Source of the DNA: an uncultured Eubacteriales bacterium
Lineage (GTDB): Bacteria; Acidobacteriota; Aminicenantia; Aminicenantales; Aminicenantaceae
Reading direction: 5' to 3'
Length of the DNA stretch: 64,000 bases
NCBI GenBank assembly: GCA_964648465.1
Contig: CAZYMU010000001.1
Coordinates: 56,230 to 120,229 of the forward strand
Below are positions 3,620-62,207 of this stretch, piece after piece (within the stretch, counting starts at the first letter, position 1; each line of letters starts with the position of its first letter). The position numbers were made by a program, and so were the translations under genes. The notes beneath the pieces were generated by a model that was not told the origin of the DNA, did no database searches, and worked only from the letters and a program-made list of their open reading frames with translations.

Positions 3620-4285
3620 ATGAAAATTTTTGCGGTTATTGGTAAATCAAAAACTGGTAAGACGCGGTTGATAAAATTGCTTCTAGTGGAATTGAAAAAA
3701 CGCGGACATTCTGTTGCTGTTGTCAAACACTGTGCTCAGGGATTTGACTTGGATTCTGAAGGAAAGGATTCCTGGCAGTTCCTGGAGTCAGGATCTGATG
3801 GTGTTGTTGTAGCATCCCAAGATCGATTAGCAGTGTTCAAAAAAAAATTGGATGAAAAGGGCTTTTCAGAGATAGCAACAGAGTTTTTTAAAAATATTGA
3901 CTTTGTTTTTATAGAAGGCGGCAGTAAGGACAAAAAACTGAGAAAAATAGAAGTGCTACGGAAGGGGATAGCCGAGAAAGTAGAATGTTTTCCGAAAGAA
4001 CTTGCTGCTGTTGTTTCTGATGTGAAAGTTGCTGTAGATAAACCTGTATTTAATCATGATCAAATAACTGAGATTTCAAATTTTATTGAGAGCAGCATTC
4101 AGTACGAAGGGCCTCGTGTTTATTTGGAGATTGATGGAAAGCCTGTACGTCTGAATGCATTTGTAAAAAAGAATACAGAAAACATTATTTTAGGGATGAT
4201 TAAATCTCTAGATGGACTCCCGGAAAATCCGGAATGTTTAACCTTATCTATAATAAGAAAGGAGAAGAAGATTGAGAAAATTTAA
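3620..4285 (+). CDS. mobB: molybdopterin-guanine dinucleotide biosynthesis adapter MobB (with about 50-aa C-terminal extension)
   Basis: The internal Met opens MKIFAVIGKSKTGKTRLI (Walker A) followed by VVKH, typical of MobB. The tracked ORF 3521..4285 has an implausible N-terminal extension. It sits in the neighbourhood of mobA and a Mo-formate dehydrogenase. Confidence 0.65.
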   Translation: MKIFAVIGKSKTGKTRLIKLLLVELKKRGHSVAVVKHCAQGFDLDSEGKDSWQFLESGSDGVVVASQDRLAVFKKKLDEKGFSEIATEFFKNIDFVFIEGGSKDKKLRKIEVLRKGIAEKVECFPKELAAVVSDVKVAVDKPVFNHDQITEISNFIESSIQYEGPRVYLEIDGKPVRLNAFVKKNTENIILGMIKSLDGLPENPECLTLSIIRKEKKIEKI

Positions 4286-4892
4286 GAACTGGTCATGGTT
4301 ATTGCTTTTTGGCTCTCTTTGGGGGATAATAGAAGTTGCTGGAGGGGGAGTCTTATCTGAGTATAATATGCTTCATGTTTCTGTAATCCTTGCAGCCTGG
4401 GCATTCATAGTCATGGCTGTTGCAAGAGGGATAGTGAATAAACCAGGTTCATCGATCGTTATTGGGATTGTTGCAGTCATTTTTAAGCTGGCAAATGCAG
4501 CCCCGTTCTTCTGCCATCTTCTAGGGATTTTTGCCCTTGGTTTAGCATTTGATGTTTTTTCAAGTTTATTAATGAAGAATGAGAGAAAAATTTCTTTTCG
4601 GTTAAGTCTAACAGGTGCATTGAGTGCATATAGTGGATATGCGCTTTTTGCCATTATCATTACTTATATCGTTCAATATAAATACTGGATTGCTGGCGGA
4701 TTGCCAAAGGTGCTTGAACATATATTTGTTGGAGGTAGTTTAGCAGCAATAGGGGCTGTGGTGCTTGTTCCTTTAGGGTTCTGGATTGGAATAAATAGTG
4801 AGAATTTATTTGAGCGGCGGCCTGTATTGACTTATGCAGGAACTCTAATGGGAGTAGTTCTTCTGTGGACATTGGGAAGATTCGTAGGATAA
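4272..4892 (+). CDS. polytopic membrane protein of unknown function, co-transcribed between mobB and focA
   Basis: 206 aa with 5-6 predicted hydrophobic helices. Its start overlaps the mobB stop by 14 nt. No family recognised. Confidence 0.4.
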   Translation: MRKFKNWSWLLLFGSLWGIIEVAGGGVLSEYNMLHVSVILAAWAFIVMAVARGIVNKPGSSIVIGIVAVIFKLANAAPFFCHLLGIFALGLAFDVFSSLLMKNERKISFRLSLTGALSAYSGYALFAIIITYIVQYKYWIAGGLPKVLEHIFVGGSLAAIGAVVLVPLGFWIGINSENLFERRPVLTYAGTLMGVVLLWTLGRFVG

Positions 4893-12735: not shown

Positions 12736-14688
12736 CTATTTAAGTATATTGGTTTTTATCCCAAGCTCGATATAGCGCCCTCTCCATGGAAATCCGGGTT
12801 CAGAATAAATATAATAGTCAAAGACATTAGTGATTTTGATAAACAATTCAGTTCGTTTAAACTGGAAGGAAATAATTGTATCCAGGTTAAAATAAGAATG
12901 AATATCCAGCAGTTCATTTGATTGATAATCGAGCCAGGATGATGAAGATGCTGCCAGGCCCATAATTACAATCCTGAATCGTTGGGAAGGGTAGATAGTA
13001 CAATCAAAATTTAAGCTGTGCCTTGGGAGAGCATCTAGTGGCCGGTCGTCACTTTTGTTCTTGTGGTCAAGGAAAGTGTAGTTTATAGTTGTTGAAAGCC
13101 ATGGAAAAGCTTTTTGAAATTGAAGTTCAAATCCATTAATATAAGCTTCTGCGATATTAAAATATCTACGGCGGAAATCGAACTCCGGAAGACGGAGGCT
13201 GTCTATCATGTCTTTGAAGCTGGTCATAAAGACAGAGCCTGTAAGGAAGAATATTTTATTGTATGTAAAACCTAATTCGCAGTTACTTCCTGATTCACTC
13301 AGGAGGTCTGGGTTTCCTGATGAACTCGAGTACATGGAACGCATAGAGGGAAATTTTGATTTCTTGGAAAAGGAGAGATGGAGCTCTATATATTCCAAAG
13401 GGGAATATTTAAGTCCGATAAGAGGATTTACTTTTGATGCATTTTTTCCAATAAACTTGTCTAGATAATCATAACTTAATCCCACTACAAGTTTCCATCT
13501 CTTGAAAAAAGATATATGATCTTCGATCCCGGCTGAAAATGTAGCTTGGTTGTATTTATCCCAGGATTCTCCCTCATCATCCTGAGTTCGAGCTACATCT
13601 CTCTTATAATTGATGCTGAATTTTAATGAGTTAGAAGAACTCATAGCAAGGTCTGCAAGAGTGAAGAGACCTAAAACAGAGTTGTCAAAAGTGCTTTCGA
13701 AGAGGCGCTGAATCATTTTTGGATCTTTGAATTGGTCGAGAGTATTGTCATAGTGGACAAAATAACCTCGAAAGCGGAGTGTGGATTTTTCCCCCAGGGC
13801 AGTATAACCACCTGCATTCAGTGTATAACGGTCCCAGTTTTTAAAACGCCAGTACCGTGGTTTATAAGCATCAAGTTGTGATGGCATAGCATAATTGGAT
13901 TTGTATATTCCTCCGTTAAAGAGAATTTCAGTGCTGTTTGATGGGTAATAGTAAATTTTTGTATTAAGATTTATTCTTTCATATTCTGTGTTTGACCTTT
14001 CGATCCTATTCCTTTCATCTTGATCTGGGAAATAAAATCCATCTGAATCCTGATAAAGCATATTTCCTGCAAAGGCAAAGCGCTTCAGTTGAAATACTGA
14101 ATTTAAACCCAGGCTGCGTGTATTTTTTTCTCCATATGATGTGTGAAACGATAGGGTTGGTTTGACAGAAGGTCTGCTTGTTATAACATTAACTATTCCA
14201 CCTAGGGTATTAGGACCGTATAGAACAGATGATGGCCCTTTGGTGAGTTGAAGGGAATCAATCCCATAGGCGGATATTGTTTTTAGATCAAACGTACTGT
14301 AGTAAGGCTCATAAACAGGAATCCCATCGATTAACAATGCAATCCGTTTTGAATCCATGCCCCTGAGCTTTAACGTGTATGTGGATTTATCTCCAAAAGT
14401 CACCATCACTCCTGGAGCGTATCTAATAGCTTCTGAAAGGTCGAGTGGTTTCATGTGTTCAATCTTTGTATGACCCAGTCTTGTTACCGTTGAAATAGGG
14501 AGGTCTCTAGGAGCTTCGGCTACTACAAGAATTTCTTCCGTAATCTTTAGTGTCTTTTTTGATTTTGTCTTCTTTTCATCTTCTTTTTGTTTTTCTTGGG
14601 AAAAAGTTAAACAAGGTAATAAAATTAGTGCCCAAATGACAAAATTAATAATGGTTTTTTTGAGAGGGTGATTTGATGAATTATTCAT
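12736..14688 (-). CDS. TonB-dependent outer-membrane receptor
   Basis: 650 aa. Has a signal peptide, an N-terminal plug region (ISTVTRLGHTKIE...DLSEAIRYAPGV) and a long beta-barrel with repeated aromatic-rich strands. Confidence 0.7.
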   Translation of the reverse strand: MNNSSNHPLKKTIINFVIWALILLPCLTFSQEKQKEDEKKTKSKKTLKITEEILVVAEAPRDLPISTVTRLGHTKIEHMKPLDLSEAIRYAPGVMVTFGDKSTYTLKLRGMDSKRIALLIDGIPVYEPYYSTFDLKTISAYGIDSLQLTKGPSSVLYGPNTLGGIVNVITSRPSVKPTLSFHTSYGEKNTRSLGLNSVFQLKRFAFAGNMLYQDSDGFYFPDQDERNRIERSNTEYERINLNTKIYYYPSNSTEILFNGGIYKSNYAMPSQLDAYKPRYWRFKNWDRYTLNAGGYTALGEKSTLRFRGYFVHYDNTLDQFKDPKMIQRLFESTFDNSVLGLFTLADLAMSSSNSLKFSINYKRDVARTQDDEGESWDKYNQATFSAGIEDHISFFKRWKLVVGLSYDYLDKFIGKNASKVNPLIGLKYSPLEYIELHLSFSKKSKFPSMRSMYSSSSGNPDLLSESGSNCELGFTYNKIFFLTGSVFMTSFKDMIDSLRLPEFDFRRRYFNIAEAYINGFELQFQKAFPWLSTTINYTFLDHKNKSDDRPLDALPRHSLNFDCTIYPSQRFRIVIMGLAASSSSWLDYQSNELLDIHSYFNLDTIISFQFKRTELFIKITNVFDYYIYSEPGFPWRGRYIELGIKTNILK

Positions 14689-14861
14689 TATGATATCTCC
14701 TTTTCAAATACGGAAGGCAAAACTGTTTCCCGTTTTACCCTATCGGTCAAAGACCATGGCTGAAGAGCTTTAGTACCCTTGACTCGGAGAAAGCGATAAA
14801 TCTAGCATAAAATAAATATATTGTAAACAGAATGGTTTTTGCTTAGCTTCTGATAAATATT

Positions 14862-30459: not shown

Positions 30460-30544
30460 TCTATCAGAAGTTTTTATGAATAATCATATTATAACAGTAA
30501 ATTAAGCTAATCGTAATCAGTAAATTGCTCTCCTGGATTATTAA

Positions 30545-30668
30545 TAAAAATTGCTGATATGTCATAACAATGAAACCTAGATTTGATCATTTTCCATGAA
30601 AATCTTGGAACTAGTTTATCCTCTATCATATCGATAATATAATTTAAATCTATTATCAGCAATTTTTA
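30545..30668. mobile_element. MITE-like 124-bp unit (copy U1) with perfect 15-bp terminal inverted repeats TAAAAATTGCTGATA / TATCAGCAATTTTTA
   Basis: Read directly from the sequence. No coding capacity. An approximately 85% identical inverted copy lies at 31660..31783. Confidence 0.55.
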
Positions 30669-30670
30669 CC

Positions 30671-30799
30671 TTACAGGCGAGCCGATCTTACAGCATCTGC
30701 TGCGTTACAGCGCATTCGTGGTGAAGGACCACAACTTCATGCGCTGTGCCTTGCATCTGCAGCAAGCTTGACTCGTGAATCATCCAGGACTTCCTGGAT
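30671..30799 (+). repeat. conserved structured repeat module (M5), copy A; second copy at 49234..49350
   Basis: About 90% identity to 49234..49350. Contains nested perfect hairpins (CAGCGCAT[..GTGGTgaaggACCAC..]ATGCGCTG and CTTGCatctgcaGCAAG), and in this copy a terminal ATCCAGGacttCCTGGAT hairpin. Confidence 0.5.
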
Positions 30800-30971
30800 T
30801 ATTAATAAAAATTGCTGAAAGAATTAATATGATATAAACTAATTTTGATTGTTCTCCATGATATGCTCAGAACTAATTTATACTATACTCTAGGCTAGAT
30901 AATAACCTAACAGCGTGAAGCATATGAATTTTAGGGGATGGAGGAAGCGACATTGAAAGATTTAGACTTTT

Positions 30972-31130
30972 TTCTGAGTCAATCTTCGAGGGAACCAGAG
31001 AAAGTCTGGCCTGATGGATGTGTGAGCACTGTATAATCAATGATGCGGTGTTAATAGTGGCTCGCGGACATTGTGGAGTTGCTTAAGATAAACATGCGGA
31101 GTTCCATCAGAGCCGAGAAGATCAGGGAGG
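30972..31130 (+). repeat. conserved repeat modules M1-M2, copy A (inverted homolog at 62044..62207; M2 also at 49115..49165)
   Basis: About 85% identity to the reverse complement of 62044..62207. Contains a conserved GTGTGAGCACTGTATAATCAA block with a TATAAT hexamer. Confidence 0.5.
31032..31037 (+). promoter_or_regulatory. conserved -10-like TATAAT hexamer inside repeat module M1
   Basis: CACTGTATAATC is conserved exactly in the inverted copy at 62139..62144. No strong -35 was found. Confidence 0.3.
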
Positions 31131-31166
31131 AAGGTGTGAAAATGCTGAAGATTTAAAATGATTTTA

Positions 31167-31547
31167 TTATTTAATGTGAGAAACCATTTTTACAGAGCCT
31201 TTGAATTGTGCTCCATCCATTATTGAAATGCGGGAAGCTGATATATCACCCGTCATTTGGCCTTCTTTTTCAATAAAGACTTTTCCATTTGCAAATATAT
31301 TTCCCTCAACAAGACCCTTAATTGTGATGTTCTTTACATGAATGTCAGCATTGACTTCGGCTTTTGATCCAACGGTCAAATTGTTATTTTCCATGTTTAT
31401 TTTCCCCTGGAACTGCCCTTCTATTATCAAATCTTCACTGGTGTATAGTTCGCCTTGAAAATTCAGGGTTAGCCCAAAGCGAGCGATTGTTTTTGGGATT
31501 ATTTCTTCAACAAAACTTTGATTTTCTTTTTTGTCTGGATCCAGCAT
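31167..31547 (-). CDS. bactofilin-family cytoskeletal protein (DUF583 beta-helix)
   Basis: Degenerate beta-helical repeats are present (LIIEGQFQGKINM, LTVGSKAEVNADIHV, ITIKGLVEGNIFANGKVFI, GQMTGDISASRISIMDGAQFKGSV). The tracked ORF extends to 31637, but its first about 30 codons lie in the repeat element, so the internal Met start is preferred. Confidence 0.55.
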   Translation of the reverse strand: MLDPDKKENQSFVEEIIPKTIARFGLTLNFQGELYTSEDLIIEGQFQGKINMENNNLTVGSKAEVNADIHVKNITIKGLVEGNIFANGKVFIEKEGQMTGDISASRISIMDGAQFKGSVKMVSHIK

Positions 31548-31659
31548 TATACCTTCTGTTGAAATAATGTGCAGATTATAGATTGCTCCCTTTAATATGT
31601 CAACAGAATTATAATACAGAAGTTCCAGCAGAGCCAAGAAGATCGGCTCGCCTGTAAGG

Positions 31660-31783
31660 TAAAAATTGCTGATAATAGATTTAAATTAGATCATCGATAT
31701 GATAAATGATAAACTAGTTCTGAGGGTTTCATGGGGAACGATCAAAACTAGGTTTAGTTGTTATAATTTATCAGCAATTTTTA
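31660..31783. mobile_element. MITE-like 124-bp unit (copy U2), inverted relative to U1
   Basis: Same 15-bp termini. Its interior is the reverse complement of U1 at about 85% identity. The junction sequence GATCGGCTCGCCTGTAAGG matches the reverse complement of the U1/M5 junction. Confidence 0.55.
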
Positions 31784-31887
31784 TGAATAGCCCACCGCAA
31801 TTATCATGTTGATATCTATTCCATTATATTTGATAATTATATTGTAAACTTTTATCAAGGTATTTTCGTCTAATAGGGGAAAGAAGA

Positions 31888-49111: not shown

Positions 49112-49350
49112 CGCTGCTTAAGATAAACATGCGGAGTTCCAGAAGAGCCGAGAAGATAGAGAGGAAATGGCGTTAAAATCTTAGTGGAGCGCAAACATGC
49201 ACTCAAATTCATCTATTATCAGCAATTTTTACCTTACAGGCGAGCCGATCTTACCGCATCTGATTCGTTACAGCCCATTCGTGGTGAAGGACCACAACTT
49301 CATGCGCTGTGCATTGCATCTGAGGCAAGCTTGACTCATGAATAACCCAG
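49112..49350 (+). repeat. modular intergenic repeat, copy B (modules M2-M3-TIR-M5), 110 bp upstream of the C69 dipeptidase gene
   Basis: Matches 31078..31125 (M2), 30654..30790 (TIR+M5) and the reverse complement of 61968..62100. Confidence 0.55.
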
Positions 49351-49459
49351 GTTAAATATTTCTTATATATCATTTTAAAATAAATAAGAAAACAAAACCA
49401 ATTGAAAAATGTGTTAAGTTGACCTCATACTTTTCTCTATGTTATAAGCTTATTGGATT

Positions 49460-51079
49460 GTGGCTGAAATGTCACACAAAAAAAGGAGACAGACGATGAA
49501 AAAGCTAAAACTATCGAAATATTATTGGATTCCTATGTTTATTTTAATTATGTTGTTTTTTGCTTATTCTGCCGAGATTTTGCAGAATGATCAAAAGATA
49601 GAGTTTGAGGGGTGTACGAGTATTATTGCTGGGAGACTAGCCTCAGTCGATGGTTCTACAATGACTTCTCATTCGTGCGATAGTGGAACAGATCGCACCT
49701 GGATAAATATAGTCCCTCATAAAAAACATAAAAAGGGGGAGATGTGCACGCTTTATTTCCAATCAAAAATGACAAAAGGGCCTGATCATCCGGACAGACT
49801 TCCAAAAGGAAAAATTCCCCAGGTTCCTGAAACATATGCATATATTAATACGGCTTATCCGGTAATGAACGAGTATCAACTTGCTATCGGAGAAACTACT
49901 TTTGGGGGGAAACGTGAGCTGCACAGCGGTATCGGTATTATAGATTGTCCGGAACTTTATCGCCTTGTACTGGAGCGTGCCAAGACGGCCAAGGAAGCGA
50001 TCAAAATTGCTGATGAATTAACTAAGAAATATGGTTATATTGACCGGGGGGAATGTTTCACTTTTGCAGACCCCAAAGAAACCTGGCAGTTTGAGATTTT
50101 GGGACCAGGAAAAGGGAAAAAAGGGGCGGTATGGGCAGCCCAACGCATTCCTGATGATCAGGTGGGGGTTTCAGCGAATTCCTCCAGGATCAGAGAAATT
50201 AACCTCAAAAACGAAGATTATTTTATGGCATCGAGTAATGTGTATTCTTTGGCTGAAGAAATGGGTTGGTGGAACAAAAAAAGCGGCAAGCCCTTTGAGT
50301 TTTGCTATGCTTATGCCTCGAGAAACAGTATGGGTTCGCGCCGTCGGGAGTGGAGAGTATTGAGTTTTGTAGCTCCATCACTAAAATTGGATCCTAACTC
50401 AGAAAATTTTCCATTTTCTGTTAGGCCAGATAAAAAAATATCTGTGAAGAATATTATCGATATTTTTAGGGACGCATATGAAGGCACAGAATTTGATATG
50501 ACCAAAAGCATGATAACTGTTAACAGAAAAGGAGAGAAAGTTAAAAGCCCGGTCGCATGTCCTCATATGAACAGGGAACTGATGGCACTGTTCAGTATTA
50601 AAAGGGAAAGGACTATTTGTTCATCCTATGCAACATATCTTCAAGTTACTCAATCCAGAGGATGGCTTCCTGATGCTATAGGAGGAGTTGTTTGGATAGG
50701 CTATGATAACCCTGCAACAACACCTCATACGCCATTTTACTGTGGAATTTCTCGAATGCCTGATTCTTATATGGTAGATGGAAGATGGGGGTTTAAACGT
50801 GATTGTGCTTGGTGGGCGTTCCGAAGAGTCAGCCAGTTGGCTAAGTTCAGATGGCAGGATATTACTAAGGATATAGCAAAAGTCTGGAAAAATATCGAAG
50901 AGAAAGCCTTTACTGATCAGCCACGAATTGAAGAAGAAGCTGAAAGGATGTATAAAAAAAATCCTGAGAAGGCTAAAAAATTTCTAACGAAGTACTGTCT
51001 TGATGTCGCAAATCAGGCAGTTAAGACATACTGGAAATTGGGTGATGACCTGTGGGCTAAATACACAAGGTATTTTTAA
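49460..51079 (+). CDS. secreted peptidase C69-family dipeptidase
   Basis: A signal/TM segment is followed by GCTSIIAGRLASVDGS, the N-terminal nucleophile Cys motif of C69 dipeptidases. An alternative start lies at 49496. Confidence 0.6.
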   Translation: MAEMSHKKRRQTMKKLKLSKYYWIPMFILIMLFFAYSAEILQNDQKIEFEGCTSIIAGRLASVDGSTMTSHSCDSGTDRTWINIVPHKKHKKGEMCTLYFQSKMTKGPDHPDRLPKGKIPQVPETYAYINTAYPVMNEYQLAIGETTFGGKRELHSGIGIIDCPELYRLVLERAKTAKEAIKIADELTKKYGYIDRGECFTFADPKETWQFEILGPGKGKKGAVWAAQRIPDDQVGVSANSSRIREINLKNEDYFMASSNVYSLAEEMGWWNKKSGKPFEFCYAYASRNSMGSRRREWRVLSFVAPSLKLDPNSENFPFSVRPDKKISVKNIIDIFRDAYEGTEFDMTKSMITVNRKGEKVKSPVACPHMNRELMALFSIKRERTICSSYATYLQVTQSRGWLPDAIGGVVWIGYDNPATTPHTPFYCGISRMPDSYMVDGRWGFKRDCAWWAFRRVSQLAKFRWQDITKDIAKVWKNIEEKAFTDQPRIEEEAERMYKKNPEKAKKFLTKYCLDVANQAVKTYWKLGDDLWAKYTRYF

Positions 51080-52275: not shown

Positions 52276-52451
52276 ACCTGAATTAGTCATAAATTATGCC
52301 TACACCAATATTTATTTTCCATTATATCTGCTAGTTGCGTTGATTTTTCCTTCAGCATAACATTTAACTCCTTTTCCTTGCAATTCTTTTCCTCTATATC
52401 AGCATTCTTTATGAATAATCCAGGTTAATTAATATTTTAAATTATGTTATA

Positions 52452-61919: not shown

Positions 61920-61967
61920 GAAAAAAAAGCACTAAGACTAATTAACCTGTATTATTCACCCAAAGGG

Positions 61968-62207
61968 TAAAAATTACTGATAATAGTTTTAATAAGATGA
62001 ATTTGAGGGCATGTTTGCACTCCACTAAAATTTTTAACGCCATTTCCTCCCCGATCTTCTCGGCTCTGCTGGAACTCCGCATGTTTATCTTAAGCAACGT
62101 AATGATGTCCCCGAGCCACTATTAACACCGCCACTTTGATTATACAGTGCTCACACATCCATCAGGCCCGCCCGACTTTGTCCGGTTCCCTCGAAGATCG
62201 ACTCAGA
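61968..62207 (-). repeat. modular intergenic repeat, copy C (M1-M2-M3-TIR in minus orientation), forming the upstream region of the OPT transporter gene
   Basis: Its reverse complement aligns to 30972..31130 and 49115..49231. The conserved TATAAT lies at 62144..62139 on the minus strand. Confidence 0.55.

Follow-up and report, generated by a model that had tools for sequence, protein, structure and literature searches.

Pieces of one repeat family in the window

The window, by which we mean the whole 64-kb stretch of DNA analysed, carries chromosomal housekeeping genes beside the repeats described here: uvrC, uvrB, an ECF sigma factor, glutamine synthetase, a C69 peptidase and lactate/malate dehydrogenase. 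Comparison of the window with itself by blastn gave a direct repeat of 141 nt between positions 30648–30788 (copy A) and 49211–49351 (copy B), with 92.9% identity and E = 4e-56. This bears out, at slightly greater length, the pair of about 90% identity described in an earlier note, which had taken it for a candidate small RNA or structured leader present at two loci. The first 42 nt of the repeat recur perfectly, in inverted orientation, at 31639–31680, and an AT-rich segment of about 95 nt recurs at 30531–30625, at 30792–30887 and, inverted, at 31709–31789. Altogether, six pieces of the family lie in the window.

Copy A belongs to a complete unit (30532–30788, forward strand), recognized from its sequence and laid out like 84 of 140 copies elsewhere, in which the left terminal repeat stands at a fixed distance from the module. 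On the forward strand, the left terminal repeat CCTGGATTATTAA (30532–30544) is followed by an inner left arm TAAAAATTGCTGATA (30545–30559), an AT-rich filler (30560–30653), an inner right arm TATCAGCAATTTTTA (30654–30668), the segment CCTTACAGG (30669–30677), a hairpin core (30678–30775) and the right terminal repeat TGAATCATCCAGG (30776–30788). We refer to CCTTACAGG and the core together as module S4; in copy A it forms one long imperfect hairpin (30669–30775, forward strand), which our covariance model R1 matches with 133.9 bits (E = 1.6e-33). The additional perfect hairpin ATCCAGG-actt-CCTGGAT that the earlier note assigned to copy A is present at 30782–30799, but it is the junction of two units: the right terminal repeat (30776–30788), a 4-nt junction, ACTT (30789–30792), which forms the loop, and the left terminal repeat of the next unit (30793–30805).

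That next unit is a second, long and incomplete one (30793–31143, forward strand), identified by blastn self-comparison and by alignment with long units elsewhere. It consists of a left terminal repeat, inner arm, filler and the first ~225 nt of another module, E2, which begins at about 30919. A third, inverted partial unit lies at 31630–31808 on the reverse strand, seen as an inverted repeat, in the sequence and as an R1 match with 78 internal positions missing. It runs from its left terminal repeat (31808–31796) through inner arm, filler, inner right arm and CCTTACAGG into an S4 reduced to the basal stem (31659–31630), next to a bactofilin gene.

Copy B is the end of a left-truncated unit (49112–49351, forward strand; sequence and blastn, R1 score 123.7 bits). 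It retains the 3′ part of E2 (49112–49214), the inner right arm (49217–49231), CCTTACAGG with S4 (49232–49338) and the right terminal repeat TGAATAACCCAGG (49339–49351), and is flanked by TTAA. A unit at 52277–52424 (forward strand), found in the sequence and by a terminal-repeat scan, has no S4; here the inner right arm and the right terminal repeat are contiguous, and 28-nt terminal inverted repeats enclose the filler. The sixth piece, copy C (61946–62207, reverse strand; sequence, blastn and alignment), likewise lacks S4. Here E2 is followed by the inner right arm, CCCTTTGGG and, directly, the right terminal repeat TGAATAATACAGG with flank TTAA, upstream of an oligopeptide-transporter-like gene.

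Anatomy of the unit

Across the family, the unit is about 255 nt long and the 107-nt module S4 is its GC-rich right part. The order is an outer terminal repeat CCTGGRTTATTCA, a 15-nt inner arm (for example TAAAAATTGCTGATA), an AT-rich filler of ~100 nt, the inverted inner arm, CCTTACAGG, a 98-nt palindromic core running from CGAGCC to GRCTCG, and the inverted outer repeat TGAATAAYCCAGG. Both ends of the unit thus carry terminal inverted repeats of 13 nt (outer) and 15 nt (inner), and in this layout S4 (30669–30775 and 49232–49338) separates the inner part of the right end from the outer one. The inner arms are subfamily-specific and each matches its own partner (TTGCTGATA/TATCAGCAA, ATGCCGATA/TATCGGCAT, ATGTCGAT/ATCGACAT, ATCAGCCTGCA/TGCAGGCTGAT). 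The filler varies in sequence by subfamily and is nearly constant in length.

Unit length is similarly regular. Terminal-repeat pairs 250–274 nt apart numbered 66, and units with E2 measure about 440–560 nt. S4 is an optional part, present in most copies and absent from some units, and in the long units E2 replaces part of the filler. E2 itself is about 170–290 nt long and recurs at about 30919–31143 (forward), 49112–49214 (forward) and 61995–62207 (reverse) in the window, and at 4044–4325 (reverse) of a further locus, L011. The units are small and non-coding, with no conserved open frame between copies.

S4 is a hairpin maintained by compensatory changes

We aligned 86 distinct full-length S4 copies (alignment A1) and derived a consensus fold with RNAalifold. 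The consensus is one long imperfect hairpin with paired segments 10–17/100–108, 26–31/86–91, 36–47/71–81 and 50–55/62–67. Of the cells in this 26-pair fold, 98.0% are standard pairs; sliding the partners by one to three columns lowers pairing to 18%–45%. Pair counts show covariation, with nine pairs changing on both sides compared with a mean of 5.0 in shuffles, and none of 500 shuffles reaching nine. Double-change cells number 74 against 11.5 expected, a count that overstates independent events because many copies share common ancestry. The first 21 columns of the alignment are invariant by construction, the copies having been collected by an exact 21-mer.

The covarying pairs are exemplified by 51–66 (UA 64, CG 19, AU 2), 43–75 (CG 65, GC 10, AU 2), 45–73 (CG 64, GC 10, UA 4), 39–79 (AU 74, GC 9) and 31–86 (GC 75, AU 6). 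Hence, the two arms of S4 are kept complementary by compensatory changes. Of the helices proposed earlier, the 8-bp central stem CAGCGCAT/ATGCGCTG and the inner hairpin are both found in copy A; copy B has the stem as CAGCCCAT/ATGCGCTG, with one mismatch. Family-wide, the central stem is backed by covarying pairs across the 86 copies. The inner hairpin is also upheld, in a shifted register: GTGGT/ACCAC is contradicted by 19 copies with C at position 51, and the pairs are instead G50–C67, Y51–R66, G53–C64, U54–A63 and G55–C62, with a conserved G–A mismatch at 52–65 (GA 78, AA 6). The CTTGC/GCAAG hairpin occurs in both window copies but finds no support in the family, since two of its five pairs are broken, without compensation, in about one-third of the 86 copies (pair 82–98, CG 52 and CC 29; pair 84–96, UA 56 and CA 29).

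Copies A and B differ at eight positions within the 107-nt module, and six of these are unpaired in the family consensus fold, in keeping with the remark in the earlier note that the differences fall partly in loops. One of the other two lies at the poorly kept 44–74 position and one breaks the terminal pair in copy B; none of the eight is compensatory.

Other explanations for a conserved 107-nt segment were considered. Two reading frames of S4 are open, but frame-shifting single-base indels occur among the copies and copy A has no start codon, so that we rejected protein coding; variability among the copies likewise has no 3-nt period. The differences between copies A and B are not adenine-specific, and we rejected the repeats of a diversity-generating retroelement. 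Nor is S4 an integron attC site: its consensus ends are CGAGCC and GRCTCG, and by inspection it has no RYYYAAC/GTTRRRY core boxes. S4 shares a conserved, covarying fold with the structured RNA families of Rfam, but an Rfam scan (the window at the gathering score, both copy regions at E up to 10) matched no family to it.

A large family in Candidatus Aminicenantes

Far from being confined to two loci, the module recurs in a family that numbers at least 140 copies. An exact 27-mer of the module found 11 loci in five species-level genomes, four of them Candidatus Aminicenantes, including Ca. Aminicenans sakinawicola, and an exact 21-mer found more than 115 metagenome stretches. In about 1.0 Mb of retrieved loci there are at least 140 instances of the exact core, 107 of them distinct, and a profile search of 1.01 Mb of loci gave 166 S4-like matches. 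The segment of the exact core is still well kept in the 27 profile matches that lack it. Several long contigs carry three or more copies each, and a large number of copies are found at the ends of contigs, where a repeat that disrupts assembly would be expected.

One 3-kb contig binned as 'uncultured Eubacteriales' (CAYOSH010000093.1) carries a typical unit of this otherwise Aminicenantes-specific family; its assignment is probably a binning error. Plasmid and phage collections contained nothing similar to the repeat, and a literature search on Aminicenantes repeats found no paper.

Flanks, arrays and copy-number differences

The flanks of some units suggest insertion. YTAR, which has a background frequency of 1.4%, flanks 20 of 63 left ends that are not part of an array, and the YTAR-like flanks of isolated units are TTAA, CTAA, TTAG and CTAG. 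Identical 4-mers stand on both sides of five of 32 isolated units (1.2 in shuffles, P about 0.005), most units having no exact duplication; the duplicated 4-mers are TTAG (twice), ATAA, TTAC and ATAG. One further unit has a 7-nt flank duplication.

About half of the units have another left repeat exactly 4 nt beyond their end and form head-to-tail arrays in which units of different subfamilies are mixed. The junctions are nearly always 4 nt long (TTCT 7, TCCA 6, TCCT 6, TTTT 4, ACTT 3). They form a narrow set and are not YTAR, so array formation may follow a different route.

Near-identical loci differ in copy number by whole units. L108 and L057 differ by exactly one unit of another subfamily, and so do L096 and L039, with TCCT on both sides of the extra copy; because both polymorphisms are bounded by direct repeats of 17–22 nt, they could be deletions as well as insertions. 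A search for an autonomous partner in the window and about 1 Mb of loci found no transposase gene with the same terminal repeats, and only ordinary genes lie between distant terminal-repeat pairs and beside solo repeats.

Strand asymmetry of the hairpin

The two strands of S4 differ in folding stability. On the strand folded earlier, the window copies fold no better than shuffled sequence (z-scores of −1.1 and +0.25), whereas on the opposite strand they reach −4.1 and −2.0. Over the 86 copies, the mean minimum free energy is −35.8 kcal/mol on the earlier-folded strand and −46.9 kcal/mol on the opposite strand, the mean z-score −2.6 and −4.8, and the fold energy of the alignment −16.3 and −29.6 kcal/mol, respectively. 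The opposite strand is the more stable in 83 of the 86 copies. This asymmetry stems from four nearly fixed positions that are G–U on the minus strand, compared with two on the plus strand. Sporadic G–U and A–C cells are about equally frequent (15 and 25 on the earlier-folded strand, 86 copies); given this and the small number of fixed wobble positions, the hairpin may be selected as RNA, as single-stranded DNA or as a cruciform.

A hexamer like TATTAT or TATAAT occurs in most subfamilies where the filler meets the inner right arm, about 20 nt before CCTTACAGG. This −10-like hexamer is the only conserved promoter element in the filler, where a conserved −35 element was not found, and the search for a terminator-like site or U run likewise found none. 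We regard it as rather unlikely that the element produces S4 as a functional structured RNA; if it does, the most likely source is the strand opposite to that folded earlier. Such an RNA could be a regulatory or scaffold RNA that controls or assists a putative transposase. A new class of RNA from mobile elements would then be present throughout an uncultivated lineage.

Gene context and alternative explanations

Copies are almost all intergenic, and three of about 140 overlap a crude open frame of at least 120 residues. Among 73 distinct contexts, the upstream and downstream genes lie on strands −/+ in 22, −/− in 21, +/− in 16 and +/+ in 14, so that the downstream gene is co-oriented with the copy in 36 of 73. 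Orientation relative to neighbouring genes is therefore random, which the earlier note itself had named as a finding that would speak against its proposal. Many units occupy the gap between convergent genes, where the left repeat adjoins the stop codon of the upstream gene, and the gene after copy A is on the other strand. As had been reported, copy B precedes the C69 peptidase gene (Pfam PF03577) in the same orientation: from its end at 49351 there are 108 nt to the GTG that opens the frame at 49460 and 144 nt to an in-frame ATG at 49496. An orthologue with 93% protein identity (locus L127) has the same insertion, although its contig breaks inside S4; about 50 nt of flank are identical to that of copy B, against four differences in the final 26 nt of the module. 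An orthologue at 77% protein identity has a 92-nt upstream region without the module. Another, at 75% (L129, about 1990–2040), has the right end of an S4-less unit, TCGACATTTTTTA|TGAATACCTCAGG, 12 nt before the start codon, which is an independent insertion near the same gene family. As judged from these sequence comparisons, the orthologue pattern fits a mobile repeat and not a conserved leader.

It is accordingly extremely improbable that the module serves a downstream gene, here the C69 dipeptidase, as a structured 5′ leader or riboswitch acting in cis. The co-oriented arrangement of copy B, 108–144 nt upstream of that gene, its recurrence in the 93% relative and the position of copy C (with E2 and no S4) before a peptide-transporter-like gene would all suit a leader, but they are set against the coin-toss orientation of downstream genes, the many copies between convergent genes, the opposed gene after copy A, the orthologues that lack the module or carry an S4-less end elsewhere, the divergence of the module beside an identical flank in the closest relative, and the absence of an Rfam match. 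Position at gene ends might instead indicate that units were co-opted to terminate transcription or as insulators at gene ends, and that the hairpins are maintained because they work as RNA in 3′ untranslated regions. The left terminal repeat frequently coincides with the exact end of an upstream open frame, genes converging from downstream often stop 10–30 nt from the right repeat, the inner arms lie between an A run and a T run as in bidirectional terminators, and the minus-strand S4 hairpin is very stable (the z of −4.1 for one window copy and the family mean of −4.8). We nonetheless hold this to be decidedly unlikely. Because YTAR contains TAA and TAG, units would be expected to insert at or near stop codons, and to survive there, even if they had no function; moreover, no T run follows S4 on either strand, the stem of the inner arms encloses a loop of ~100 nt, unlike intrinsic terminators, and ~30% of the contexts are between divergent genes.

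Two further readings turn on the unit as a carrier. According to one, S4 is a multi-copy, trans-acting small RNA transcribed from a promoter in the filler, with the terminal-repeat hairpin as its 3′ end and the mobile unit as its vehicle. Covariation of the hairpin, the hexamer at a fixed place in most subfamilies, the 12–13-bp 3′ hairpin that about half of the units form with the next left repeat after 4 nt, and the loci in which the left half of a unit and the first 30 nt of S4 precede a co-oriented gene with a ribosome-binding site (L029, L073, L117 and, in the window, bactofilin) are consistent with this. It remains unlikely in view of the poor folding of the window copies on this strand and the greater stability of the opposite one in 83 of 86 copies, the missing conserved −35 element and terminator-like U run, the sporadic G–U cells that do not exceed A–C, and the persistence of units without S4. 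Very improbable is the other, in which the units are cassettes moved by a site-specific recombinase at a near-palindromic site made of a right repeat, 4 nt and a left repeat, that is, arms of 11–13 bp around a short centre as in lox or dif. The almost invariable 4-nt spacing of arrays, the mixture of subfamilies within them and the direct repeats, including the left repeat, that bound both polymorphisms would accord with such a site, but the left edge of arrays and of single units is a half site only, isolated units have YTAR flanks and, in some cases, 4-bp duplications, and the units in the loci examined have no linked recombinase gene.

A probable MITE-type transposable element

The repeat family, its terminal repeats and modular build, the flank pattern, random orientation, copy-number polymorphism and covariation together point to another reading, which we think probable: S4 is an internal part of a miniature inverted-repeat (MITE-type), non-autonomous transposable element that has spread through Candidatus Aminicenantes genomes. 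On this reading, S4 has no gene-specific regulatory role. The conserved, structured module recognized in the earlier note stands and its observation of a repeat was correct, but its interpretation as a leader of the dipeptidase gene fails on random orientation and on the orthologue without the module, and a small RNA of two loci is not what the family represents.

For the kind of transposase and the role of the hairpin we infer the following. A transposase supplied in trans would recognize the two-part ends and insert the unit either at a YTAR-like tetranucleotide, duplicating 4 bp, or right beside the end of a resident copy, which would yield head-to-tail arrays. S4 would have to fold out as a hairpin, whether in single-stranded DNA, in cruciform DNA or in a transcript, and by doing so might unite the halves of the split right end or bind a factor that the element needs. 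This role for a hairpin in the element interior is a conjecture. Several observations stand against the MITE-type reading: no autonomous partner turned up in the window and about 1 Mb of loci, the array junctions are not YTAR, both polymorphisms could be deletions, a compensated hairpin of 107 nt is unusual inside a cut-and-paste element, and an exact duplication is kept by only a minority of isolated units.

Comparison with known systems places the units among mobile repeats of an ordinary kind, although the element is previously undescribed. MITEs such as the Correia elements of Neisseria and RUP of Streptococcus pneumoniae are about 150–450 nt long. Like these bacterial MITEs, the units are short and non-coding, with terminal inverted repeats, many dispersed intergenic copies, short flank duplications at a minority of isolated units, subfamilies, recombinant copies and folding into a long hairpin. 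They differ in the optional, conserved 107-nt palindromic module that splits the right terminal repeat into outer and inner parts, in the head-to-tail arrays with a fixed 4-nt junction, and in that no parent insertion sequence was found in the loci searched. Insertion sequences of the IS5 group (IS5 family) duplicate a 4-bp YTAR target. The YTAR-enriched flanks of the units and the exact 4-bp duplications at some of them recall this group in target pattern; unlike IS5-group elements, the units came with no DDE transposase gene in our searches, and their array junctions are not YTAR. BIMEs and REPINs are mosaics of repetitive extragenic palindromes mobilized by RAYT transposases. The units resemble them in their mosaic palindromic build, compensated hairpins of ~100 nt, intergenic position at gene ends and arrays, but have true terminal inverted repeats and, in some copies, 4-bp flank duplications, and no short REP with a conserved 5′ tetranucleotide.

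The identification keeps a repeat module from being annotated as a riboswitch-like leader. It also makes available, for the annotation of Aminicenantes genomes, a repeat family whose unit anatomy and target preference are defined and for which there is a covariance model. Should the hairpin be needed for mobility or be produced as RNA, it would stand out as unusual among the cis elements of small transposons.

The E2 module, the bactofilin locus and unusual copies

E2 is a second conserved module with a terminal inverted repeat of its own, AGATGAATTTGAGGGG ... CCCTCAAATTCATCT, and its internal segment TGTGAGCACTGTATAAT resembles an extended −10 promoter. In distant lineages (L026, L087, L003) the nesting is reversed, an inverted unit being flanked by E2-like halves.

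The bactofilin gene (31167–31637, reverse strand; Pfam PF04519) lies between two inverted unit left ends, at 30793 (forward) and 31808 (reverse), and also between direct repeats of an E2 segment of ~25 nt (31101–31125 and 31621–31646). The locus resembles the outcome of a rearrangement involving repeat copies, or of the capture of a gene by two element ends. Between the repeat remnant and the gene is a sigma-70-like promoter matching at 12 of 12 positions (31603–31575, reverse strand).

At three loci (L029, 11221; L073, 6515, reverse strand; L117, 13808) the left half of a unit and the first ~30 nt of S4 are fused to another conserved sequence, GCATCTCAGGCTGTGTCATAA..., and in L073 a co-oriented gene with a ribosome-binding site comes next. 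These fusions suggest that the element can supply upstream sequence to genes. In L087 (3607, reverse strand), the apical part of S4 carries a palindromic insertion of ~45 nt, ATGTCATCACGGGGAGCGAAGCGACGTGGTGATCTCAT, making a hairpin within a hairpin. The 3′ end of S4 in copy B contains TTGACT, 15 nt from the end of the element, and forms with the flank an outward promoter-like site (49331–49360, forward strand); in one-third of family copies this hexamer is TCGACT. Elsewhere in the window, at 14681–14801 on the reverse strand, there is a molybdenum-cofactor riboswitch aptamer (Rfam RF01055), scoring 75.3 bits against a gathering score of 36.
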